A stretch of DNA of 64,000 nt from Alphaproteobacteria bacterium. Its GTDB lineage: Bacteria > Pseudomonadota > Alphaproteobacteria > Bin95. The first letter of the stretch is position 1, and the number at the start of each line of letters is the position of its first letter. Below are positions 2,623 to 60,705 of the stretch, in pieces. The notes under the pieces were generated by a model. The model was not told the origin of the DNA and searched no databases. It saw only the letters and a program-made list of their open reading frames with translations. The stretch lies in the NCBI GenBank assembly GCA_964291285.2, contig OZ219786.1, forward strand, positions 672,001-736,000, in the 5' to 3' direction. The position numbers and the translations under genes are program-made.

Positions 2623-2672
2623 CGGCGCGCTATGCTGGCCGGGACATCCATGCGGACGGGGGAGAGAGCGTC

Positions 2673-3440
2673 ATGGCGGGAATGCTGGCGGGCAAGGCGG
2701 CGCTGATTACCGGAGGTGCGAACGGGATCGGGCGGGCGACGGCGCTGCTTTTTGCGCAGGAAGGGGCGCGGGTCGCGGCGGCCGACCTCAATCTCGAAGG
2801 GGCGGAGGAGACCGCCGCCATGATCCGCGAGGCCGGCGGCGAGGCGATTGCGCTCTCCGTCGAGGTGTCGGACGCCGGACAGGTCGAGGCGATGGTCGAG
2901 GCGACCGTGGAGGCGTTCGGGCGGATCGACTGCGCCTTCAACAATGCCGGCATTGCGCCCGTCAATGTCGGCAACAACGCCAAGCGGACGCATAGCTGGT
3001 CGGAGGAAGGGTTCGACCGGATGATCGAGGTCAATCTCAAGGGCGTGTGGCTGTGCATGAAGAGCGAGATCGCGCGCATGCTGGAGACCGGCGGCGGGAC
3101 CATCGTCAACACCTCCTCCATCGCGGGCCTCGCCGGCCTGCCGACCTCGTCCGGCTATGTCGCCGCCAAGCACGGCGTCTCCGGCCTCACGCGCACCGCC
3201 GGCATCGAATACGCCACCGACAATATCCGCGTGAACGCCGTCTGCCCCGGCTTCATCGCCACCGACATGACCCGCGAGGTCATGTCCCGGCGCGGCAACG
3301 AGCTCATGGCCCTGGTGCCGGCGCGGCGGATGGGCGAGGCGCGGGAGATCGCCGAGATGGTCTGCTGGCTCTGCTCGGACCGCTCCGGATTCGTCACCGG
3401 GGCCACCTACAATGTCGATGGCGGCTACATGGCGTCCTGA
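2673..3440 (+). CDS. Short-chain dehydrogenase/reductase (classical SDR)
   Basis: TGGANGIG Rossmann motif, NNAG and YVAAK catalytic motif. RBS GGAGAG before the ATG at 2673. Confidence 0.92.
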   Translation: MAGMLAGKAALITGGANGIGRATALLFAQEGARVAAADLNLEGAEETAAMIREAGGEAIALSVEVSDAGQVEAMVEATVEAFGRIDCAFNNAGIAPVNVGNNAKRTHSWSEEGFDRMIEVNLKGVWLCMKSEIARMLETGGGTIVNTSSIAGLAGLPTSSGYVAAKHGVSGLTRTAGIEYATDNIRVNAVCPGFIATDMTREVMSRRGNELMALVPARRMGEAREIAEMVCWLCSDRSGFVTGATYNVDGGYMAS

Positions 3441-3467
3441 CGGGCGGAACGGGGAGGAGACAGGGGC

Positions 3468-4238
3468 ATGGCCGGAATGCTGGCGGGCAAGGCGGCGCTG
3501 ATTACCGGGGCCGCGAACGGCATCGGGCGGGCGACGGCGCTGCTTTTCGCGCAGGAAGGCGCGCGGGTGGCGGCGGCCGACCTCAACCTCGAAGGGGCGG
3601 AGGAGACCGCCGCCACGATCCGCGAGGCGGGCGGCGAGGCGGTTGCGCTTCCCGTCGAGGTGGTCGAGGCCGAGCAGGTCGAGGCGATGCTGGATGCGGC
3701 GGTCGAGGCCTTCGGGCGGATCGACTGCGCCTTCAACAATGCGGGCATCGGACCGGCGAATCTCGACCATTACGCCCGGCGCACCCATGAATGGACCGAG
3801 GAAGGCTTCGACCGGATGATCGCGGTCAACCTCAAGGGCGTGTGGCTCTGCATGAAGGGCGAGATCGAGCGGATGAAGGCGGACGAAGGCGGCGGGGCCA
3901 TCGTCAACACCTCCTCGGTCGCCGGCCTGCTCGGCCTGCCGGGCGGCAGCGCCTATGTGGCGGCCAAGCATGCCGTCTCGGGCCTCACGCGCACCGCCGG
4001 CATCGAATACGCCTCGGACGGCATCCGCGTGAACGCCGTCTGCCCCGGCTATATCGCGACCGACATGACGCGCGAGGCCCGCGCCCGGCGCGGCAACGAG
4101 CTCATGAACCGCGTGCCGGCCCGGCGCATGGGCGAGGCGCATGAGATCGCCGAGATGGTCTGCTGGCTCTGCTCCGAGCGCTCAAGCTACGTCACCGGCG
4201 CCACCTACAATGTCGATGGCGGCTACGTGGCATCGTGA
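3468..4238 (+). CDS. Short-chain dehydrogenase/reductase, tandem paralog of the previous gene
   Basis: TGAANGIG, NNAG and YVAAK motifs. Colinear with and highly similar to 2673-3440. Confidence 0.92.
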   Translation: MAGMLAGKAALITGAANGIGRATALLFAQEGARVAAADLNLEGAEETAATIREAGGEAVALPVEVVEAEQVEAMLDAAVEAFGRIDCAFNNAGIGPANLDHYARRTHEWTEEGFDRMIAVNLKGVWLCMKGEIERMKADEGGGAIVNTSSVAGLLGLPGGSAYVAAKHAVSGLTRTAGIEYASDGIRVNAVCPGYIATDMTREARARRGNELMNRVPARRMGEAHEIAEMVCWLCSERSSYVTGATYNVDGGYVAS

Positions 4239-4354: not shown

Positions 4355-4623
4355 TTCGTTCGATTTTTATGAAATAATTCAGAATTAAAGCTTAACCTCT
4401 GAGAAGTCCGATCTAATATAGGGCGAGAGGAAGGGAGCGGTATCCGCGCGGGGCCGCTTCTTCTCCCGGTTCGCGCCGGCGCACAAAACCCTGAGAAATG
4501 GACGGGAGATGTACGCCCTGCGTTCGGGCCTCGCGCGCGCGGGCGCAATCAGGCGCGCGATTCGCGCCGCCGCGGGACGTGCGCAGGCGCGCGCGGGGGC
4601 GCCCGCGCAGGATACGCGCGAAT
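4355..4623 (+). repeat. Dispersed structured intergenic element, diverged copy 1 (ends at the IS1634 junction)
   Basis: Shares the AT-rich TGAAAT block, the AGCGG..CCGCTTC hairpin (4435-4460), GCGCAATCAGGCGCGCGA..CGCGCC (4543-4568) and GGCGCCCGCGCAGGATACGCGCGAAT (4598-4623) with the copies at 38.9 and 58.7 kb. Confidence 0.75.
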
Positions 4624-6643
4624 TAGCCCGACTTCCGCAACTCGGGGGTCATGAGGATGCTAACTCATTGAATAGCCTTGATCGTCTCCCCGAGGGTCGG
4701 CACTACAAGGCGGCGAACGGAGAGGCGGCGCCGTGTGCCGTCAGGCGGAGATCCGGGGTGCGGGTTGCTGCGGCCAGGTCATGCCGAGCTGTTGCAGCAG
4801 TAGCTCGTGCTCCTTGTTCGGCCGGGTGTGGCGCGGCAGGACGAGGTGCCGGCCGTCGGTGGTTGGCAGATGGACGTCCACCATCTGGATGGTGGCGAAG
4901 GCCTCAAGGATGGCGCGTGGGGTGAGGCCCGGGGCGCGCGGCCGGGCGAGGTTCTTCAGGGTCACCAGCAGGCAGTAGGCGATGAACGAGACGAAGATAT
5001 GCGCCTCGATGCGCTCTTGGCGCTGATGGAAGATGGGGCGGATCGCGAGGTCGTGCTTGAGTTCCTTGAACGCCTGCTCGATCTCGACGAGCTGCATGTA
5101 CAGATGCCACAGCGTGGCGGGGTCTTCGGCGACCATGTTGGATCGCAGCAGGTAACGGCCCTCGCGGCGGCGGACCTGGCGCAGCCGGTCGCGCTGCAGG
5201 CGGAATGAGAAGCCGTTGGCGGCGAGTTCGCTGTCGGTCCCGGGCACGGTGATGTCGACCAGGCTCCAGGCCCGGCCGGCCTCCTTCCTGGCGGCGCCGA
5301 GCTTGAGCAACAACTGATCCCGGCTGTTCGACTGCCCTTGCAACTCGGCCAATCGACGCCACAGCCTCTTCAGCCGGCGCCGGCGCATGCCGCGTTCCTT
5401 CACCTGCCGCCCCTCGCTGCGCACCAGGACGTAGAGCTCGCCATCCTCGACCAGAAGCTTGACAGTCACGGACTGGCGCACCTCCTGCCAGGGCAGGCCC
5501 AGGAACACCTTCTCGAGCCGCGTCAGCCGGCCCTTGGGCGTGCCCACCAGGTAGCGCACCGGCGCCTCGCCCTCGCGCATCGCGGCCAGCGTCTCCTCGG
5601 TGGGGATGCCGCGGTCCATGATCCACACCCGCTCGGAGCGGCCATACTGATCCTCGATCTTCTTGAGGAACGCCGCCAGCGTGGTGTCGTCGGAGGTGTT
5701 GCCCGGCATCACCTCATAGGCCAGCGGAAAGCCCTGCGGCGTAACGATCAGGGCGATCACCACCTGCACGCAGTCGGGCCGCTTGTCCCGGCTGTAGCCG
5801 AAGCGGCGCTTGTCATCGAACGGCGGATCGCTCTCGAAGTAGGTCGAGGTCAGGTCGTAGAGCAGCACGTCGAAGCGCGCCTCGAACAGCGTCGCCCAGC
5901 GGTCGCGCAGAAACGAGAAGAAGCCCTGCTTGTGCGCCAGCAGCTTGTCGAGACAGCGATAGAGTGTGTCGTCGGCGATCGCCCGCTCGCCACCCAGAAG
6001 ATCGCGAAGCGCGCTGTGCTCATACCAGTGACGGTGAAGGCGCCACTCGCTGCCCGGGTCGATCAGCCGGTAGCAGACCTGGATCTTCAGGATGTCCAGC
6101 CACCGCGTGCCTTGCCGGCTCGCCGGCAGCCGCTCTTCCCAGAAGCGGTCCAGGTCCAGGCGGTCCCACAAGGACAGCGCCAGCCAGCACGCCCCCCACT
6201 GGCGCGGGTCGTGAAGCGCCACCTGCGAGAGGTCGATCTTCACCACTTCGCAAGTCAGCGCCGGCGCCTCCCGGTCCTCGGGAAACAGCGCCATCTGCCG
6301 TGATCGCGACTTGCCCTCCACCACCTCGATCGAGCGGCACCACGCCGCTCGCTGGCTGTCGTTGATCTCCCCGAGATAGAGCACCTGACGCTGAACAACC
6401 CGACCGCCGTGGACCCGGACGTTCTCCACAACGCTCCAGTAGCGGTGCTCCTTGCCGTCCTTGAAGCGTCTCTTGCAGCGCACGAACATCAGCGCAGCGT
6501 CCGGATCTTCGCCAGCCCGATCAAGGGGGTAGGTCGGCACTACAAGCCGGTCCCGAGAGGTACTGCACCGAAATCCGACACTTCTCGCGCCGGAAAACCG
6601 TCAAATCAGTCGATTCTCAAGCCGAGTTGCGGAAGTCGGGCTA
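4624..6643 (-). mobile_element. IS1634-family insertion sequence, copy B (complete, 2020 bp counting the terminal TA)
   Basis: Inverted ends TAGCCCGACTTCCGCAACTCGG at 4624 and CCGAGTTGCGGAAGTCGGGCTA ending at 6643. The terminal TA may be a 2-bp target duplication. Confidence 0.92.
4741..6540 (-). CDS. IS1634-family DDE transposase
   Basis: Identical translation to 90-1889. Confidence 0.9.
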   Translation of the reverse strand: MPTYPLDRAGEDPDAALMFVRCKRRFKDGKEHRYWSVVENVRVHGGRVVQRQVLYLGEINDSQRAAWCRSIEVVEGKSRSRQMALFPEDREAPALTCEVVKIDLSQVALHDPRQWGACWLALSLWDRLDLDRFWEERLPASRQGTRWLDILKIQVCYRLIDPGSEWRLHRHWYEHSALRDLLGGERAIADDTLYRCLDKLLAHKQGFFSFLRDRWATLFEARFDVLLYDLTSTYFESDPPFDDKRRFGYSRDKRPDCVQVVIALIVTPQGFPLAYEVMPGNTSDDTTLAAFLKKIEDQYGRSERVWIMDRGIPTEETLAAMREGEAPVRYLVGTPKGRLTRLEKVFLGLPWQEVRQSVTVKLLVEDGELYVLVRSEGRQVKERGMRRRRLKRLWRRLAELQGQSNSRDQLLLKLGAARKEAGRAWSLVDITVPGTDSELAANGFSFRLQRDRLRQVRRREGRYLLRSNMVAEDPATLWHLYMQLVEIEQAFKELKHDLAIRPIFHQRQERIEAHIFVSFIAYCLLVTLKNLARPRAPGLTPRAILEAFATIQMVDVHLPTTDGRHLVLPRHTRPNKEHELLLQQLGMTWPQQPAPRISA

Positions 6644-6664: not shown

Positions 6665-6970
6665 CTAGCAGCCCGCCAACCGCTCGACACGCTCGCGCCA
6701 TGCCTCTTGCCCTGTGATCTCGCGCCTCGCCTCGCTGGCGCTCTTGCGGGCATGGCAATCGGCACATAGGCCCTGCCAGCCTTCCCGATTCCAGAATGTT
6801 TATGCCGTCCGGTTGGTCCGCAGCAGCTGGATATGGTCGAGTTCGCTTGCGGCGCGGACAATGCCGTTGCGCCTGCATTCCGCGCATAGGGGATTGGCGG
6901 CGAGGAAAACCCGCCTCGCGTGCCTGTAGCGGCGCGTAGAGCGCGCCCGGCGCGGGTCGAAGCCCGTCAT
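6665..6970 (-). pseudogene. Phage-type HNH endonuclease with an in-frame TAA at 6800-6802
   Basis: Manual translation: MTGFDPRRARSTRRYRHARRVFLAANPLCAECRRNGIVRAASELDHIQLLRTNRTA*TFWNREGWQGLCADCHARKSASEARREITGQEAWRERVERLAGC. Shows the CxxC..DH..WQGLCxxCH HNH pattern. Its ATG overlaps the portal stop (ATGA). Confidence 0.8.
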
Positions 6971-7983
6971 TGCCCTTCCTCAATCAAGCCCGCGATATAG
7001 AGCGCCTCGCGCGTCGGAACGCCAAGCCGGCCCAGGGCGTCGGCCGCCCTCGCCTGCATCGCGGTGTCGGAAGCCCGTAGCGCGGCGAAGTCGAGCGAAA
7101 CCGGGCGGCCCAGCTTCAGGGACGCTTCGTCGGCAAGAATGCGGCCCAGCGGCTCGATAGTCGCCCGCACAAGGCGCCTGTAGCTTTCGCGCGATGCAGC
7201 GCCGTCACCATCCCCGCGCAATAGGTTCGTGGGGACGCCCGCCGCCGCCGCAACCCCTTCGGCGCTTGTCCGCCTCGCCGCGTCGATCGACGCGGGCGGG
7301 TCCGGCTTCACGCGGTCCGTTTGCAGCCGTTCGGGCGCAAAGAATGTCCGCCCGTTCGGCGAGTTCTTTATCCGGTCCGCCAGCACGCCCAGGAATTCGG
7401 CGGCAACCGACGCCTTGTCTTCACGGTCGATTGAAAGCATGGCGTAGGACTTGATTGCAGACTCGCCCTTCAGCGCCAAATCGCCCGCCAGCGCCAGCTC
7501 GGCATCGGACATGGCGCCTTTGAGCGGCGAGCGCCCGCGCCAGGGCGTCCCTATGGTGCCGCCGACGCGGACATGCAGCACGGCATCGGCGGGCGCCAGC
7601 ACTTGCTCGCTGCCGGCATAGGGCGAAGGGACATAGAGGCGATAGCCCCACTCGCGCGGGTCCGGCGAGCGGCCCATAACATCGGCGCTCGACGCGGGCG
7701 CAATCATGCCGTCCGCCAGTATCGCGCCTATGAATTCGCCATGGAACAGGAGCGCCCGCCCGATAAGGTCCATAAGGCCCGGCGTCAGCCCGTCCGCGCC
7801 CTCGACGCGGGCGGCGGCGAAGGCCCGCCCATAGACGCCCGCGCAGGCTTCCGCGACGCTCAGGCGGCGCAAGTCCGCCGGGGCGCCCGCCGCCCGTTCC
7901 AGCGCCCATTCCTCGATTGAGTCGCCAATGTCGGCCCGCGTTTCGGCGGGCGCTTCGGCTTGCCGCGACCAGGGCCAGCGCAT
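6967..7983 (-). CDS. Phage portal protein (short, HK97-like)
   Basis: Portal-like motifs ADAVLHVR, GRSPL, VAAAAGVPTNLL and TIEPLGRILADEASLKL. Lies between a prohead protease and an HNH gene. Confidence 0.7.
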   Translation of the reverse strand: MRWPWSRQAEAPAETRADIGDSIEEWALERAAGAPADLRRLSVAEACAGVYGRAFAAARVEGADGLTPGLMDLIGRALLFHGEFIGAILADGMIAPASSADVMGRSPDPREWGYRLYVPSPYAGSEQVLAPADAVLHVRVGGTIGTPWRGRSPLKGAMSDAELALAGDLALKGESAIKSYAMLSIDREDKASVAAEFLGVLADRIKNSPNGRTFFAPERLQTDRVKPDPPASIDAARRTSAEGVAAAAGVPTNLLRGDGDGAASRESYRRLVRATIEPLGRILADEASLKLGRPVSLDFAALRASDTAMQARAADALGRLGVPTREALYIAGLIEEGQ

Positions 7984-38694: not shown

Positions 38695-38919
38695 CTCCCT
38701 TCATCGAACAAATTCCGATGCGAAAGATTGACTGAAGCCATGATAATGCGATTAGTTTGCATTCTTAATTGGAACATGCAGAGCTTGAACACGATCCGTT
38801 CAGGTTGACCCGGCCCCGTCCGCAAAGCCTCAATCATCGCCCCGGCCCCCCGATCGGGGGCGATGAAGGTGTATGGCAAAAAATTCCTGAAATTTATGCA
38901 ATGATTCCTTATTTGGGAC

Positions 38920-38946
38920 TTGCACCTGAGAAAACAGTGATATGAT
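38920..38946 (+). promoter_or_regulatory. Putative sigma70 extended -10 promoter (TGaTATGAT)
   Basis: TG-n-TATGAT at 38938-38946 in an AT-rich island, with TTGCAC upstream. GTGATATGAT is conserved in copy 3 at 58713-58722. Confidence 0.55.
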
Positions 38947-39206
38947 GGGTCCGAAGTAAGCGGCATCCGGAGCCGCTTCCCGCTCGTGCCGGCCCGGTGC
39001 GGAACGACCCCGATTCAGCCGACAGGCGAAGTGCGTCCTGCGCCTGCCCCGCGCACGCGCAATCAGGCGCGCGAACCGCGCCGGCGCAAACGCCCGCCCC
39101 CGCCGGCACAGGCGCCCGCGCGGGATACGCGCGAATCAGGGTCCCGCCGCTGAGGCAACCGGGCGGCGGGAAGAACGGAACGAAGACGGATCGAAAGGAG
39201 AGACCC

Positions 39207-39302
39207 ATGCCAAAGACGCGAAGCCGGGGACACCGGATGGAATACCCGGAGCCCATGCCCGAACAGGTCACGGGATATGCGCCGCGCGCATGCAGATCAT
39301 GA
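39207..39302 (+). CDS. Putative 31-aa peptide inside the element (MPKTRSRGHRMEYPEPMPEQVTGYAPRACRS)
   Basis: Strong RBS AAAGGAGA upstream. The stop codon lies in the first CATGACA unit. Confidence 0.35.
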   Translation: MPKTRSRGHRMEYPEPMPEQVTGYAPRACRS

Positions 39303-39366
39303 CATCTCATGACATATCGCACGGGGTCCCGCCGGCCCGCATGACAAAACATGACATCCCATGACA
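39298..39366 (+). repeat. CATGACA heptamer array (5 units)
   Basis: Units start at 39298, 39308, 39340, 39350 and 39360, with a 10-bp period within each group. Confidence 0.9.
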
Positions 39367-39438
39367 TGTTCGACCGGTGTTCCTGTCCTGGCGGCAGGCG
39401 CGGGGCCGGGATGCGGGGCTGTCGGAACGGGGCCCGCT

Positions 39439-40890
39439 CTAAAACACCGACGCCCAGCGCTTGAGCAGGGCTTGCTCCAGGTTCCGCGCCCGGTCGAGCC
39501 ACGCTTCGCCCTGCTCCCGCTCTTCTTCTCCCGGCTCGGGACCGAGCGCATCGAGGCGCCGGCGCTCGTCGAGGTCGCTGGTGAAGAGCGCGAAGGCCAG
39601 CCTTCGTCCGGACGCCGCGTGCAGATATCCGGCAAGGCCGCGCCCGTAATACATGCTGCCGGTCTTTGCCCAGACGCGGAACGCCAGCGCGGGGTCTTCC
39701 TCCCAGCCGGCCAGCGAGCCCTTCCAGCCGGAAATCGGCAGGAGCGATTCGAAGCTGCGGCCCCCGTAGCGCCGGCCGTCGGCATAGCGGAGCAGCGCCG
39801 CCATCCGCCGGGGCGAGGCGCGCGACCGGCTGCTGAGGCCGGAATGGCGGTCGAGCAGCCAGCCCGTCCCATCCCCGCCCAGGCGCCGGTCGAGCTCCGC
39901 CTGCAGGCGGGCGGCGGAGGCCTCCAGCGCCTCGGGCCGGCCGGCCAGCTTGCGGGAGGCTCCGAGGCCCATCAGTTCGGCAACGAGATTGTTGCTGTAT
40001 TGCAGGGAAAGGGCGGCGATATCGACCAGCCGCGGACCGCGATGGCGGGCGACGGGCCGGGCGTCCACCGGCGCGGTCCCGGCCTCCGGTCGGGTAAGCG
40101 CCAGCCCCTGCATGGCCGCAAGCTCGCGGAAGACGGAGGCCGTGAACCGGGACGGCCGGCGCACCGGCACCCATGTCCTTCCCGGCCTGCGGGCCGTCAC
40201 CCGCCAGCTCGGCCCGTCCGGCGTTTCGAGGCGGTGGAAGAGCGCCTCGCCCTTGCCCAGGGCAGCCCGCAGCGGCGCGAGATCGCCGGCCGGCAGGGCG
40301 AAGGCCGCAAGTCCGCCGCCCTGTTTCGCGCCCCACACCAGGCGCCGCCGGTTGAAGGACAGCGAGAGCGCCGAAACGCCCGGATTGTAGGTTGCGCGGT
40401 CGCTCTGCCCCGCGTCGATTTCGGCAGCGGGCAGAAGCAGGCCGTCGTCGTAGAAGAGGCCGGCCCGGGCGATGCCGGCTTCGGCGCCGGCCCGCGCGAG
40501 CGACATCAGGTCCTCCACGGCGAGCAGCGGGTCGCCGCCGCCCACCAGGTAGAGCCGGTCGCCGGAACGCCTGAGGCTCGTCTCGAAGCGGTGCTCGCCG
40601 CCGAGGATCTCGAGCGCTGCAACGGCGGTTGCAATCTTGGCGGTCGAGGCGGGCAGGAAGGCTTCGTCCGCCCGCCGCGACGCCAGCACGGCGCCGCCAT
40701 CGAGGTCGATCACGACATAGCCGGTGCCGGCGCCTTCGAGCCCGGCGGCGGCGATCAGCGCCTCGGCGGGCGGCGGCGGCGTTTCCGGCTGCGCGGCCGA
40801 GAGAGGCGGCAGCGCCAGCGCTGCGGAGAGCGCCAGCGCCGCCAGAGGCCGCCGGCCCGCTCTCCTCAACTCGGCAGGAAGCGTTCGCAA
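39439..40890 (-). CDS. dacB: D-alanyl-D-alanine carboxypeptidase/endopeptidase (PBP4, peptidase S13)
   Basis: PASTAK (SxxK), GGGDP, SNN and KTG motifs, with a signal peptide. Confidence 0.85.
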   Translation of the reverse strand: MRTLPAELRRAGRRPLAALALSAALALPPLSAAQPETPPPPAEALIAAAGLEGAGTGYVVIDLDGGAVLASRRADEAFLPASTAKIATAVAALEILGGEHRFETSLRRSGDRLYLVGGGDPLLAVEDLMSLARAGAEAGIARAGLFYDDGLLLPAAEIDAGQSDRATYNPGVSALSLSFNRRRLVWGAKQGGGLAAFALPAGDLAPLRAALGKGEALFHRLETPDGPSWRVTARRPGRTWVPVRRPSRFTASVFRELAAMQGLALTRPEAGTAPVDARPVARHRGPRLVDIAALSLQYSNNLVAELMGLGASRKLAGRPEALEASAARLQAELDRRLGGDGTGWLLDRHSGLSSRSRASPRRMAALLRYADGRRYGGRSFESLLPISGWKGSLAGWEEDPALAFRVWAKTGSMYYGRGLAGYLHAASGRRLAFALFTSDLDERRRLDALGPEPGEEEREQGEAWLDRARNLEQALLKRWASVF

Positions 40891-58540: not shown

Positions 58541-58996
58541 CACGTTGCATTAGAGCGGCACCCGTTCGGGTTGAAACGGCTTCGTCCGTAAAGCCTCAAG
58601 CATCACCCCGGACGGCACGTCAGCAGCCTGCCCCGGACTTGATCCGGGGCGACGAGCCTTTCATGAAATTTAGGTAATATTTCTCTATTTCTGGTCTGAA
58701 TCAGGAAAACCCGTGATATGATGGGTTCGAGGTAAGCGGCATCCGGAGCCGCTTCCCGCCCGCGCCGGCCCGGTGCGGAACGACCCCGATTCAGCCGACA
58801 GGCGAGGCGCGTCCTGCGCCTGCCTCGCGCACGCGCAATCAGGCGCGCGAACCGCGCCGGCGCAATGGCGCGCCCGCGCCGGCACAGGCGCCCGCGCAGG
58901 ATACGCGCGAATAGGGGTCGCTCCGATGCCGGGACGGTGCGTCTGCCAACCCGCTCCGGTGTCCGCACCGGGCGCAAGCCGAACCAGGGAGCCGCC

Positions 58997-59296
58997 ATGC
59001 CTATCATCGACCCGACCGTCGCCCTCTCCACCCGCCAGGAAGCCTTCTGCCGCCACTGCACGGCTTCCGGCAATGCCGCAGACGCCGCAAGGCGCGCCGG
59101 CTATGCCGAACGCTCCGCAAGGCAGACAGGATGCGCGCTCCTGGAGCGGCCCTGGATCGTGGAGAACATCGAACAGCGCCGCCGGGACAGCCTCGACTGG
59201 CTCCAGAGGGCCGGACCCCTCAATGCGCCCCGGCAGCCGGACGGGCCCGACGGCGGGGATTTCACCCCGACCATGACAAAACATGACATTTCATGA
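58997..59296 (+). CDS. Terminase small subunit-like HTH protein (99 aa)
   Basis: LSTRQEAFCRH..GNAADAARRAGY.ERSARQTGCALLERPWI matches the TerS N-terminal pattern (LT.KQ..F...Y....NAT.AA..AGYS..A...G..LL..P.I). RBS AGGGAG. Confidence 0.72.
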   Translation: MPIIDPTVALSTRQEAFCRHCTASGNAADAARRAGYAERSARQTGCALLERPWIVENIEQRRRDSLDWLQRAGPLNAPRQPDGPDGGDFTPTMTKHDIS

Positions 59297-59298
59297 CA
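59272..59298 (+). repeat. CATGACA heptamer triplet (10-bp period)
   Basis: CATGACAAAACATGACATTTCATGACA; 25/27 identical to 39340-39366. Confidence 0.9.
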
Positions 59299-59332
59299 CG
59301 GCGCTGGAGTGGGCCCCTTGGGTCGGACAGTT

Positions 59333-60127
59333 TCACGCGGCATTTTTGACAGGGTTGCGTTGTTGTTTCTCCTCGAAGCGGTTTGGGCTCAGATATCCGA
59401 GGGCGGAGTGCAGGCGTCTGTGGTTGTAGCTGTCGATGAAGCGTGGCAGTTGCCTTGCGACGTCTTCGGCGGTCTCGAAGGCCATGGGATAGACGCCTTC
59501 GACCTTCAGGGTTTTCATGAAGCTCTCCATCATGGCGTTGTCGTAGGGGTTGGCTCGTCGTCCCATGGAGCCGACCATCCCGTGTTTGTCGAGCCGGGTC
59601 CGGTAGGCATGGGCGGCGTATTGCGAGCCCCTGTCGGAGTGGTGGATGCAGCCGGGCTGAGGGCTTCGGTTCCCGATCGCCTTGTCGAGCGCCGCGAGCG
59701 TCAGGCGCGCGTCGATGCGTTGCCCGAGCGCGTAGCCGACAATGCGGCGCGACCAGGCGTCCATGACCGCCGCCAGATAGACGAAGCCGTCCAGGATGGC
59801 GATGTAGGTCAGGTCGGCGACCCAGAGCCGGTTCGGGCCCTCGACCTCGCAGTCCCGGGACCGGTCCGGGAAGACCGGCCCGTCGTGGCCGCTGTCCGTG
59901 GTGGCGACAAAGCGGCGCTTGCGCGGCGGCTGCAGGGCGTGTTCGCGCATCAGCCGCCTGACCTTCTTGTGGTTGACGGTCCGGCCCCGGTGGCGAAGTT
60001 CCGCCTGCATGCGCCGCCAGCCATAGGCCTCGAACTCGTCCTTGATCTCGTGCATCGCCTCGACCAGGGCGGTGTCGTCGACCGGGCTCTGCGGCTCGCG
60101 GTAACAGGTGGAGCGCGCGATCCCCAT
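59333..60127 (-). CDS. IS3-family transposase OrfB (rve integrase core)
   Basis: YGWRRM, WVADLTYI, HHSDRGSQY, DNAMMESF and HSALGY. Confidence 0.92.
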   Translation of the reverse strand: MGIARSTCYREPQSPVDDTALVEAMHEIKDEFEAYGWRRMQAELRHRGRTVNHKKVRRLMREHALQPPRKRRFVATTDSGHDGPVFPDRSRDCEVEGPNRLWVADLTYIAILDGFVYLAAVMDAWSRRIVGYALGQRIDARLTLAALDKAIGNRSPQPGCIHHSDRGSQYAAHAYRTRLDKHGMVGSMGRRANPYDNAMMESFMKTLKVEGVYPMAFETAEDVARQLPRFIDSYNHRRLHSALGYLSPNRFEEKQQRNPVKNAA

Positions 60128-60477
60128 CAGTCGGCATCCTTCGGCAACGGAGAGGCCTCGGGGCCGGCGATCACGGACATGGGCGCGCGCCTCGACCGCC
60201 GTCCTTGCCGCAAAGCCCCCTTTAGGAACTCCAGCTCCGCGGCCTGCCGGCCGACCAGCCGTTCGAGCGTCGCGATCCGGGCCTCATACGCCCGGAGCGT
60301 GTCAGCCGCCTCGGCCTCCTCATCGAAGGCGCCGGCCTCGTATTTCTCCAGCCACAGCCGGATCAGGGTGCGAGACAGGTCATGACGGCGGGCCAGACCG
60401 TAAAACGTCTCGCCTGCCAGATACTCCTCAACGACCTGGCGCTTGAAGGCCATGCTGTGCGTGCGGTGCTTCCTCAT
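60127..60477 (-). CDS. IS3-family transposase OrfA (HTH)
   Basis: MRKHRTHSMAFKRQVVEEY..LARRHDLSRTLIRLW. Its stop overlaps the OrfB ATG (TGATG). Confidence 0.88.
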   Translation of the reverse strand: MRKHRTHSMAFKRQVVEEYLAGETFYGLARRHDLSRTLIRLWLEKYEAGAFDEEAEAADTLRAYEARIATLERLVGRQAAELEFLKGALRQGRRSRRAPMSVIAGPEASPLPKDAD

Positions 60478-60705
60478 CGGCGTCGATCCTTCCAATGACC
60501 GCGCACCTGTCAATTTCCTACAACAAAACTGTCCGAGACCAGGGGCCCACTCCACGCGAGAGGGCGCCGCCACTCCTCTCTTCTCCCGCCTGCAGGGGAA
60601 GCCGCGGACGGGGGAACGGGAGTGCATGCAATCCGCGTCCGGGGGTGGTAAACCGTCCGCCTCCGGTTTTCCTGCACACCCGATGCCCGTTTGAAGGACG
60701 ACGAC

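Follow-up and report, generated by a model that had tools for sequence, protein, structure and literature searches.

A probable genus-wide family of small modular cassettes with a hairpin-rich leader, a variable reading frame and phased CATGACA repeats in sponge-associated Alphaproteobacteria

INTRODUCTION

Three kinds of described systems come closest to the dispersed element studied here: interspersed repeats, cassette systems, and modules in which the gene for a small terminase subunit (TerS) lies beside a pac site. The element was predicted in a 64,000-nt stretch of an alphaproteobacterial genome (assembly GCA_964291285.2, contig OZ219786.1, positions 672,001 to 736,000 of the forward strand; hereafter the window), where the copy at 38796-39366 was described as a promoter followed by a structured core of 200 nt, a small variable open reading frame (ORF) and CATGACA repeats. 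We call the whole unit a cassette and this copy copy 2. Copy 2 probably belongs, as a short and decayed copy, to a family of small modular cassettes that spans a genus, and none of these three kinds fits it on its defining features.

Among the interspersed repeats, repetitive extragenic palindromic (REP) sequences, bacterial interspersed mosaic elements, REP doublets forming hairpins (REPINs) and miniature inverted-repeat transposable elements (MITEs) share with the cassettes a load of tens to more than 100 intergenic copies within one lineage, an abundance of hairpins and the role of targets for insertion sequences (ISs); IS elements are known to target REPs. The cassettes are longer (0.3–1.5 kb) and directional, with a promoter-like block, a ribosome-binding site and an ORF slot, whereas terminal inverted repeats and target duplications are missing and neither a RAYT-like nor a DDE partner was identified. 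A test for IS or MITE character found no inverted pair joining the cassette ends (three pairs join GC-rich flank outside the cassette) and no transposase in the longest recurrent cassette form.

Phage-inducible chromosomal islands likewise keep a chromosomal TerS homologue without the large terminase subunit (TerL), and they redirect packaging with their own TerS. The cassettes differ from them in size, in number (about 90 copies) and in having no integrase, replication or capsid-remodelling genes. The SPP1/SF6 small terminase G1P with its pac site is similar in its N-terminal helix-turn-helix (HTH) domain, the long helices behind this domain and the direct repeats beside the gene; for SPP1, direct repeats of the pac region are reported at the small-terminase gene (PMC4737164). 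Integron cassettes and ‘mobile promoters’, the latter a case of promoter reuse in prokaryotes (PMC3575422), are also alike in that an unchanging 5′ module with a promoter precedes unrelated genes, each unit closes with the same 3′ site, and tandems occur now and then.

Finally, the bridge RNA of IS110 and the omega RNA of IS605 resemble the core of the cassette in being conserved, structured, non-coding segments of ∼200 nt that are tied to a repeat. Here, in contrast, neither a DEDD nor a TnpB gene lies behind the core, and the resident IS110-family sequence is a different one that interrupts cores. Unlike IS200/IS605 elements, the cassettes have no strand bias, 44 of 89 copies lying on the G-rich strand in a genome whose GC-skew signal is weak, and they have no Rfam omega-RNA match. 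They also differ from retrons, as none of the four reverse-transcriptase (RVT_1) matches in the genome lies beside a core.

RESULTS

Copy number and distribution of the cassette

The window lies in contig 2 of a five-contig genome of 6.13 Mb with 68% G+C, rated 100% complete. Throughout the analysis gene calls were rough, several counts came from custom scripts, and the relatives compared are kin rather than independent samples. The three same-strand copies of the original prediction were all found on the + strand, at 4355-4623, 38796-39366 and 58562-59298 (copies 1, 2 and 3). Across the genome, three rounds of nhmmer with the core returned 89, 102 and 105 matches, and 89 of the final 105 were near full length (at least 150 of 211 model positions), which bears out the prediction of a multicopy dispersed unit. 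A genome without further copies of variable cargo is clearly at odds with these roughly 90 copies and their varied contents.

The core holds a 24-nt motif that we searched for with up to two mismatches, using the reversed motif as a control. The motif occurred 91 times in this genome and 35–116 times in each of 12 other genomes of the genus, which consists of uncultured sponge-associated Alphaproteobacteria; among four further genomes of the genus, one had three occurrences and three had none. It was absent from 20 genomes of two sister genera, and the reversed control gave no match anywhere searched. The repeat is far beyond chance. The exact motif was also present in 116 metagenome contigs, and the cassette had no plasmid match. 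No Rfam family matched the window at gathering thresholds, as expected from the prediction, and a search of 38700-39450 at E-values up to 10 yielded only two chance-level matches (11.1 and 9.7 bits). A full-text literature search, with supplementary files outside its range, found no description of such an element.

Anatomy of the three copies

In a repeat search of the window, positions 38884-39165 and 58660-58941 aligned over 282 nt without gaps at 85% identity, and core sub-blocks of 46 and 50 nt were common to copies 1, 2 and 3. The 200-nt core is shared gap-free between copy 2 (38953-39152) and copy 3 (58729-58928) as had been claimed, although 16 mismatches were counted instead of about 12. 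All three stems named in the prediction are present in the sequence (Table 1), and both ORFs, of 31 and 99 aa, have their stop codon in a CATGACA unit, within the sequence TCA-TGA. Copy 1 qualifies as a third copy by its promoter-like block and core, but not by its tail, which is missing where an IS interrupts the cassette at ..GAATTAG. To the right of the copy 2 array, homology to the flank in another genome of the comparison (G007) resumes at 39396.

One component of the original prediction did not survive. The CCGTTCRGGTTGA..AAAGCCTCAA block with its hairpin had been counted as the left end of the cassette, and we read it as a separate small repeat because it has only four other BLAST matches in the genome (query positions 1-50), because a similar block also adjoins an element-free site in G007, and because its position in copies 2 and 3 is not collinear (identity of 31% when aligned at the offset of the core). 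A small repeat of the form CCGTYCRGGTTGA(A/C)CGG.. followed by a GC hairpin was seen at 38796-38866, at 58562-58655 and at L130:2520-2600, independently of the cassette.

The cassettes as a whole consist, in order, of a conserved AT-rich promoter-like block, a GC-rich leader of ∼200–250 nt that is built of local hairpins and holds the invariant 24-nt motif, a GGGTCCCGCC box with a hairpin, a ribosome-binding site with a variable ORF, and a 27-nt terminal triple of CATGACA units with the consensus CATGACAAAACATGACAYYCCATGACA.

Cargo of the cassettes and the TerS-like protein

The 89 cassettes were sorted by cargo with tblastn and a peptide motif. A TerS-like gene was present at full length in 10 and in part in 9; an unrelated class C gene (190–234 aa) was complete in 6 and partial in 2; 16 encoded a class B peptide of 31–41 aa, as copy 2 does; and the other 46 held other cargo or none. 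An isochorismatase-family gene and a fusion of an N6_N4 methylase with HNH were each found in single cassettes, and one metagenome cargo was a DUF7946-DUF7947 protein with a weak PADLOC match to PDC-S42. PADLOC matches of the cargo were limited to this weak PDC-S42 (DUF7946) match and to methyltransferase matches of the MTase-HNH cargo. With tiny peptides and slots in which nothing is recognisable completing the range, the predicted variable ORF slot is real, although in most cassettes it is filled by one gene in stages of decay or is empty. Two side searches on class C were set aside: the tail encoded by the array is all that class A proteins have in common with class C proteins, and the candidate class C relatives in an Atlas search scored at most 0.82, which is noise.

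The longest recurrent cassette form encodes only the TerS-like protein. Its 329-aa version (P0001) matched Pfam PF03592 (Terminase_2) over residues 11-70 with an E-value of 1.2e-10 and 42.6 bits (cut-off 26.1), covering profile positions 2-61 of 141, and it also matched PHROG terS families. An AlphaFold2 (AF2) monomer model had a mean predicted local distance difference test (pLDDT) score of 62, with about 90 for residues 11-60; it was helical to about residue 106, including long helices at 52-90 and 93-106 (pLDDT 77–79), and largely disordered thereafter. The best Foldseek matches were the DNA-binding domain of the SF6 small terminase (4zc3 and 2cmp; probability 1.00, 40% identity over 50 columns, TM-score on the target 0.82), and SF6 small terminase at full length was also among the best; no match of the whole 329-aa model reached an E-value of 0.001. 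These matches identify an N-terminal HTH DNA-binding domain of the SPP1/SF6 type.

All 12 PF03592 matches in the genome lie inside cassettes. Among the 10 intact copies the ratio of non-synonymous to synonymous substitution rates (dN/dS) was 0.22 for codons 1-110 and 0.35 overall, and the protein is therefore under purifying selection. A word-index search returned 310 relatives, of which the named ones are called ‘terminase small subunit’. In a sample of 150 further genomes from across the class, a single one had a weak match to the protein. Phage records matched only residues 7-97. Copy 3 encodes an internally deleted form whose 99-aa ORF is 86% identical to residues 1-65 of the 329-aa protein. 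The 329-aa HTH protein would represent the master form, with the 31-aa ORF of copy 2 and the 99-aa ORF of copy 3 as its putative internal-deletion derivatives.

These findings bear on the idea that the cassette is a packaging module, in which a dispersed pac-like site with its own TerS would, on infection, hijack the TerL of a phage or gene transfer agent, so that either neighbouring host DNA is transduced or phage packaging is sabotaged as a decoy defence. The only conserved intact protein is small-terminase-like, and its gene adjoins direct repeats phased by one helical turn, an association that predates the core; SPP1 pac likewise has direct repeats at the small-terminase gene. Yet the large-terminase families PF03237, PF03354, PF04466 and PF05876 have no match in this genome, rated 100% complete, in a search that covered these four TerL families; the Pfam match extends over profile positions 2-61 of 141 only, so that an oligomerisation domain, which in small terminases forms a ring of 8–11 subunits, or a TerL-binding part would be putative; only the N-terminal 60–90 residues resemble phage TerS, most copies have no gene, and the 24-nt core motif was absent from 2.9 million viral contigs. 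Compared with G1P and pac, there are here 10 intact and about 9 broken chromosomal copies without other phage genes, the repeats lie 3′ of the gene, and the protein ends in a disordered acidic/basic tail of 200 residues. We consider a packaging module distinctly unlikely, and the link to DNA packaging in the original prediction comes down to the N-terminal homology of one cargo protein. As a separate observation, a 338-aa Phage_portal homologue (PF04860, E-value 1.8e-11) is encoded at 6967-7983 on the − strand, adjoining the IS that truncates copy 1; since the genome has no TerL of the four families, it looks like a prophage remnant.

The promoter-like block and the hairpin-rich core

Alignment of the left flanks showed that an AT-rich stretch of ∼70 nt is conserved, with TTGACA or TTGCAT, 15 nt and TG-n-TATGAT at its end. 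This block is kept across sub-families, and flanks are unrelated beyond ∼70 nt upstream of the −10 element. TATGAT was present in 38 of the 89 copies and the TG extension in 47, whereas a −35 match at a spacing of 16–18 nt was found in only 13, a low count because the hexamer sits at 15 nt. The predicted promoter therefore holds as a conserved AT block, but its −35-like hexamer is not placed 16–18 nt from TATGAT.

The core, of about 75% GC by eye, is built of local hairpins and ends in a box, (A)GGGTCCCGCC, with a GC hairpin behind it. Copies differ by indels of 2, 5 and 12 nt, which indicates that the core is non-coding. A hairpin model was built by hand, fitted by eye and counted on 79 non-redundant copies from several species, with controls that are lenient for related sequences. 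In the model, 88.8% of hairpin cells were paired, compared with 23–60% when the partners were slid; double-sided changes occurred at 13 pairs against a shuffled mean of 8.7 (10 of 500 shuffles reached 13), and the covariation score exceeded all 500 shuffles. The first hairpin held most of this signal, with double changes in 5 of its 10 pairs, and its top shifts register between sub-families yet stays palindromic. The hairpins are thus conserved, in an RNA or a DNA role, and the support for an RNA structure is modest.

Sequencing runs offered a further view. Of 23 listed runs, one of them RNA, four were mapped. Runs X1–X3 had even depth over the flanks, as DNA would; over the core their depths add up to a high value, but this is not a copy number.

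Fourteen loci from more distant metagenome-assembled genomes (MAGs), with proteins of 44–61% identity, shed light on the age of the core. Those read in detail comprise a promoter of the TTGCAT/TTGACA plus TATGTT/TAGATT type, a short leader and a TerS-like gene, and several end in xxTGACx units with a 10-bp period, while nhmmer found no core in any of the fourteen. As several of these coreless loci have both, the pairing of the TerS-like gene with phased repeats is older than the core, and the GC-rich core can be read as inserted into the leader in this genus only.

The core could instead be a free-standing multicopy non-coding RNA (ncRNA) gene, serving as a guide or scaffold for a recombinase or nuclease encoded elsewhere or as a regulatory small RNA, with ORFs and arrays secondary. 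Consistent with this, 46 of 89 cassettes fall into the ‘other or none’ cargo group, the distance from core to array is at most 308 nt in 53 of 63 cassettes on metagenome contigs, the 24-nt motif is near-invariant across species while the remainder of the core has diverged to about 72%, the hairpins are conserved with some covariation, and the promoter-like block is kept across sub-families. The coreless unit of the distant MAGs argues, however, that the core was added to an existing mRNA leader, and intact copies have a ribosome-binding site and an ORF behind it. Moreover, there is no Rfam match, omega-RNA and retron families included; the 13 IS110-family copies do not contain the core but break into it; none of the four RVT_1 genes adjoins a core; and the one RNA run gave no evidence of expression. 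A free-standing ncRNA, as the original prediction allowed, is thus unsupported and in our judgement unlikely.

CATGACA arrays and mini-cassettes

CATGACA clusters with a 10-bp period numbered 113 in the genome, and 102 of them had a same-strand core within 3.5 kb upstream, in agreement with the predicted constant 5′ promoter-plus-leader and 3′ CATGACA modules. Conversely, 82 of the 89 cores had an array within 3.3 kb behind them, at a median distance of 233.5 nt. The terminal triple was found 106 times when up to three substitutions were allowed, and similarity between most copies stops at its last base. Because the 10-nt spacing of the units shifts the frame by one each time, the triple offers both TGA and ATG in all three frames, and ORFs of any frame consequently end in it (..MTKHDIP*, ..DHDKT* or ..S*).

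On the reverse strand the triple (39340-39366, and all others) reads TGTCATG three times with a 10-bp period and resembles the Pho-box heptamer CTGTCAT. The Pho box, to which PhoB binds, consists of direct CTGTCAT-type heptamers with an 11-bp period upstream of a −10 element. In our comparison of heptamer and period, the heptamer was similar and the period was 10 rather than 11. An OmpR/PhoB-type response regulator may be an alternative binder of the array.

Promoter-less mini-cassettes of ∼198 nt with their own triple stood in tandem behind a full cassette at six places. They start with TCCACGGTGGAGAGGACGGTCCCGCC and contain a core-like hairpin, a ribosome-binding site, a 12-codon ORF and a CATGACA triple; sites are G000 C1:228056, C1:292895, C1:1183962-1184160, C3:319153 and C4:370487. 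A GGGTCCC-type box was seen, without being counted, after the core and again ∼6 nt behind the array in several copies. A TGGAG-type motif lay 3–9 nt behind 28 arrays, and seven of these are followed by complete ISs; the other 21, which might pass for ‘solo IS3 ends’, are tentatively read as variants of the post-array GGGTCCC box or as mini-cassette starts.

Boundaries of this kind raise the question of a site-specific cassette system resembling a miniature integron, in which the promoter and leader would form a platform ending in GGGTCCCGCC as an attI-like box, the ORF with its array would be the exchangeable unit with the array as an attC-like site, and a recombinase encoded elsewhere would insert or swap such units. 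Unrelated cargo does lie between constant boundaries, the GGGTCCC-type box recurs on both sides, the promoter-less mini-cassettes are in tandem, and ISs insert exactly at box and array boundaries; some IS1111-type elements target integron attC sites similarly. On the other hand, no integrase lay beside any platform examined, although no search was aimed at IntI; there are about 90 platforms, not one; the arrays lack the imperfect palindrome of attC; unequal crossing-over between arrays can also yield tandem units; and most of the ‘cargo’ represents one gene in various deletion forms. We regard such a system as unlikely.

Residence and evolution of the copies

Core midpoints fell inside rough gene calls in only 9 of 89 cases, the calls covering about 60% of the genome. 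Neighbouring genes had no preferred orientation, the downstream gene being co-oriented in 47 of 89 cases. This matters for the possibility that the core is a host cis-regulatory leader (riboswitch, thermometer or attenuator) of a regulon, with which a GC-rich, structured 5′ region would agree, as would the conserved promoter-like block in front of it. A riboswitch or leader is expected to precede co-oriented pathway genes consistently, whereas here the cargo is unrelated or absent and most of the about 90 copies have no real gene behind them; the element is also missing from the sister genera and from three species of the genus, and no Rfam family matches. We therefore consider a host leader very improbable and close to refuted.

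A tree of the first 205 residues of the TerS-like protein from seven genomes grouped the copies by genome. Seven label changes were needed for seven groups (minimum 6, shuffled mean 31.1), and nine of the ten copies of this genome formed one supported clade. Four class A copies nevertheless occupy sites whose orthologues in other species also hold a cassette. For three of these pairs the flanks were 85–93% identical and the cassettes only 78–79%; the fourth gave a single alignment of 88% across the left flank and the element. Paralogues within this genome had 93–97% identity, with one divergent copy at 87%. Among the orthologous sites, one has no cassette in this genome, and at one different sequence has taken its place.

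Since copies cluster by genome despite their orthologous sites, long residence with homogenisation inside each genome is favoured over recent transposition. The pattern indicates concerted evolution of the copies. Mobilisation in trans, as had been predicted, is unsupported: copies at orthologous sites point to old residents homogenised per genome.

The copy 2 site is also occupied in two other genomes (G006 and G014); its flanks are adjacent in G006 and, as pieced together from separate contigs, in G014, and they are far apart in G007, G005 and G016. The cassette thus marks a synteny break, given that the flanks are far apart in three species, and no clean empty site for copy 2 was readable in those three genomes. 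One apparent empty site (L081 against G000 C3:1259850) was left unused, as it has a 21-nt direct hairpin repeat and locus-specific bounds and may be a deletion. Just behind the copy 2 orthologue in G006 we observed a MITE-like insert of ∼110 nt (L123:3640-3750; arms CGTCATGCCCGGACTTGTTCCGGG and CCCGGAACAAGTCCGGGCATGACG), and upstream in the same locus a further insert of 435 nt with a small ORF.

A landing site for insertion sequences

The prediction that neither a transposase nor a terminal inverted repeat belongs to the cassette was confirmed by the searches. The DDE, IS3-family and IS110-family genes nearby belong to separate ISs with their own ends. An IS4/IS1634-like IS truncates copy 1; five cores in the genome end in ..GAATTAG, and three arrays are preceded by an IS end and then TTAGGGTCCCGCC, suggesting a 4-bp TTAG target inside the element. 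The insertion lies at the same TTAG, directly 5′ of the GGTCCCGCC box of the cassette. An IS3-family IS with a 3-bp duplication lies 6 nt behind the last CATGACA in seven cassettes, in both orientations. One IS3-family copy was seen directly upstream of an array (C3:1316269), and the IS3-family end TGGAGTGGGCCCC resembles the post-array GGGTCCC box. PF01548 (IS110-family) had 14 matches, and the 13 examined represent one IS of about 1.07–1.14 kb at ≥99.7% identity; it splits the core at ..CCGACG^GGAGA.. in four cases, and in one more a core half is found on one side. Examples are G000 C1:640087-641407 and C3:1276434-1277764. The cassette is a shared landing site for three IS families.

Other features of the window

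The remaining features are collected in Table 1. The segment GGGCGGCGGGA (39161-39171) is the 3′ arm of the post-core hairpin and was also returned as an arm of a pair in an inverted-repeat scan. Just upstream of copy 1, at 2658-4187, we observed a direct duplication of ∼1.5 kb consisting of two adjacent blocks (spacing 795–798 nt, 84–88% identity), which is probably a tandem gene duplication.

Table 1. Positions of the cassette copies, their parts and adjoining elements in the 64-kb window
Feature	Position	Strand	Remark
Copy 1, promoter-like block and core	4355..4626 (core 4414-4626)	+	cut off at ..GCGCGAATTAG; nhmmer, sequence
IS4/IS1634-like IS truncating copy 1	4627..6637	-	inverted ends CCCGACTTCCGCAACTCGG; 599-aa DDE_Tnp_1 transposase at 4741-6540
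CCGTTCAGGTTGA..AAAGCCTCAA block with hairpin TCATCGCCCC/GGGGCGATGA	38796..38866	+	small separate repeat adjoining the cassette, not part of it; hairpin also returned by the inverted-repeat scan
Copy 2, AT-rich promoter-like block	38870..38952	+	TTGCAC 38920-38925, 15-nt spacer, TG-A-TATGAT 38938-38946 (extended −10 type)
Copy 2, GC-rich hairpin-rich core (leader)	38953..39150	+	nhmmer, sequence reading
Copy 2, P1 hairpin of core	38958-38978	+	AAGCGGC/GCCGCTT; sequence reading
Copy 2, invariant 24-nt motif of core	39059-39082	+	GCAATCAGGCGCGCGAACCGCGCC; stem GGCGCG/CGCGCC inside
Copy 2, terminal hairpin of core	about 39117-39134	+	CGCGC..GGATA..GCGCG
Copy 2, boundary box	39139-39148	+	GGGTCCCGCC
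Copy 2, hairpin directly 3′ of core	39143..39171	+	CCCGCCGC / GCGGCGGG; no T-run behind; sequence reading
Copy 2, putative 31-aa ORF (class B peptide)	39207..39302	+	MPKTRSRGHRMEYPEPMPEQVTGYAPRACRS; AAGGAGAG upstream; stop inside first CATGACA unit
Copy 2, CATGACA arrays (right-hand module)	39298..39366	+	two units (39298, 39308), 25-nt GC-rich spacer, terminal triple
Copy 2, terminal triple	39340-39366	+	CATGACAAAACATGACATCCCATGACA; units at 39340, 39350, 39360
Copy 3, promoter-like block and core	58660..58928	+	repeat search, nhmmer
Copy 3, cargo: 99-aa internally deleted TerS-like ORF	58997..59296	+	ends in array; PF03592 match C2:731027-731182
Copy 3, terminal triple	59272..59298	+	CATGACAAAACATGACATTTCATGACA; units at 59272, 59282, 59292
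IS3-family IS, 1,250 bp	59305..60554	+	ends TGGAGTGGGCCCC..GGGGCCCACTCCA; 3-bp duplication CGC; 6 nt behind copy 3 array

DISCUSSION

The reading that we favour, to which we give an even chance, is that the cassettes are resident selfish units derived from a promoter, a TerS-like gene and a phased array, with a leader acting in cis and a protein acting on the array. The ancestral unit would have comprised the promoter, the TerS-like gene and phased TGAC repeats, into which the core was inserted later. The extended −10-type block would drive transcription of the leader, and the leader may act on its own mRNA as a 5′ stem-loop for stability or translation control. By analogy with small terminases at pac, the TerS-like HTH protein might assemble on the 10-bp-phased heptamers beside its own gene, while cargo in any frame would end at the triple. 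The family would then persist as selfish DNA that stays at fixed sites between genes, is kept uniform by gene conversion and offers a landing pad to three IS families.

Several results weigh against this reading. A consensus promoter scan listed no + strand promoter in 38700-39500, which includes copy 2, and 15 nt is a non-canonical distance between the −35-like hexamer and TATGAT. The RNA run gave a single 205-nt contig covering 38974-39104 at a depth of 2.5 and less than 90% likeness, with a T-rich loose end, from which neither transcription nor a start can be claimed. The hairpin model was derived from the same sequences that it was tested on, with the lenient controls noted above; RNAalifold on a MAFFT alignment gave a weak fold of 17 pairs (−9.98 kcal/mol, of which covariation accounts for −0.58); and a long-range helix from single-sequence folds (columns 96-105 with 257-266) was dropped, as it showed no compensating change. 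The ‘structured’ core of the original prediction thus has modest support, from its local hairpins and not from a global fold. On the protein side, the isolated SF6 domain was reported to bind pac DNA with little specificity and without preference for box repeats (PMC4737164), so that with a domain this close to non-specific, CATGACA binding is not to be assumed from homology. As for mobility, the searches turned up neither an enzyme for it nor terminal inverted repeats or a target duplication, which leaves a ‘selfish mobile’ element without a mechanism. Lastly, with 46 of 89 cassettes lacking recognisable cargo and the short core-to-array distances of the metagenome copies, most copies could yield only RNA, and this fits the ncRNA reading at least equally well.

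A bolder variant is possible, if doubtful: a transposase-free chromosomal module in which the TerS-like protein and the phased TGAC array would form dispersed pac-like or att-like sites. Equally doubtful is its proposed action, by which such a module might capture the packaging motor of an incoming phage, for transduction or as a decoy defence of a sponge symbiont, or direct cassette exchange at the boundaries formed by GGGTCCCGCC and the array, with the genus-specific leader and its 24-nt motif as an RNA or DNA handle.

On present sequence comparisons the cassette family does not appear to open a long-standing question yet. It does have practical sides. Many cassette copies lie at contig ends in draft genomes, and a landing pad shared by three IS families matters for the assembly, binning and annotation of MAGs; the label ‘terminase small subunit’ could also mislead annotators as a sign of prophage. 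The triple supplies each reading frame with both a stop and a start codon, and about 10 dispersed gene copies would provide a natural case of strong concerted evolution. A TerS relative in a genome without TerL of the families searched raises the question of what role the TerS fold plays outside packaging. If the favoured reading of these cassettes is true, roughly 0.5–1% of the genome across a genus, a rough estimate from ∼90 copies of 0.3–1.5 kb, would consist of one uncharacterised cassette family.

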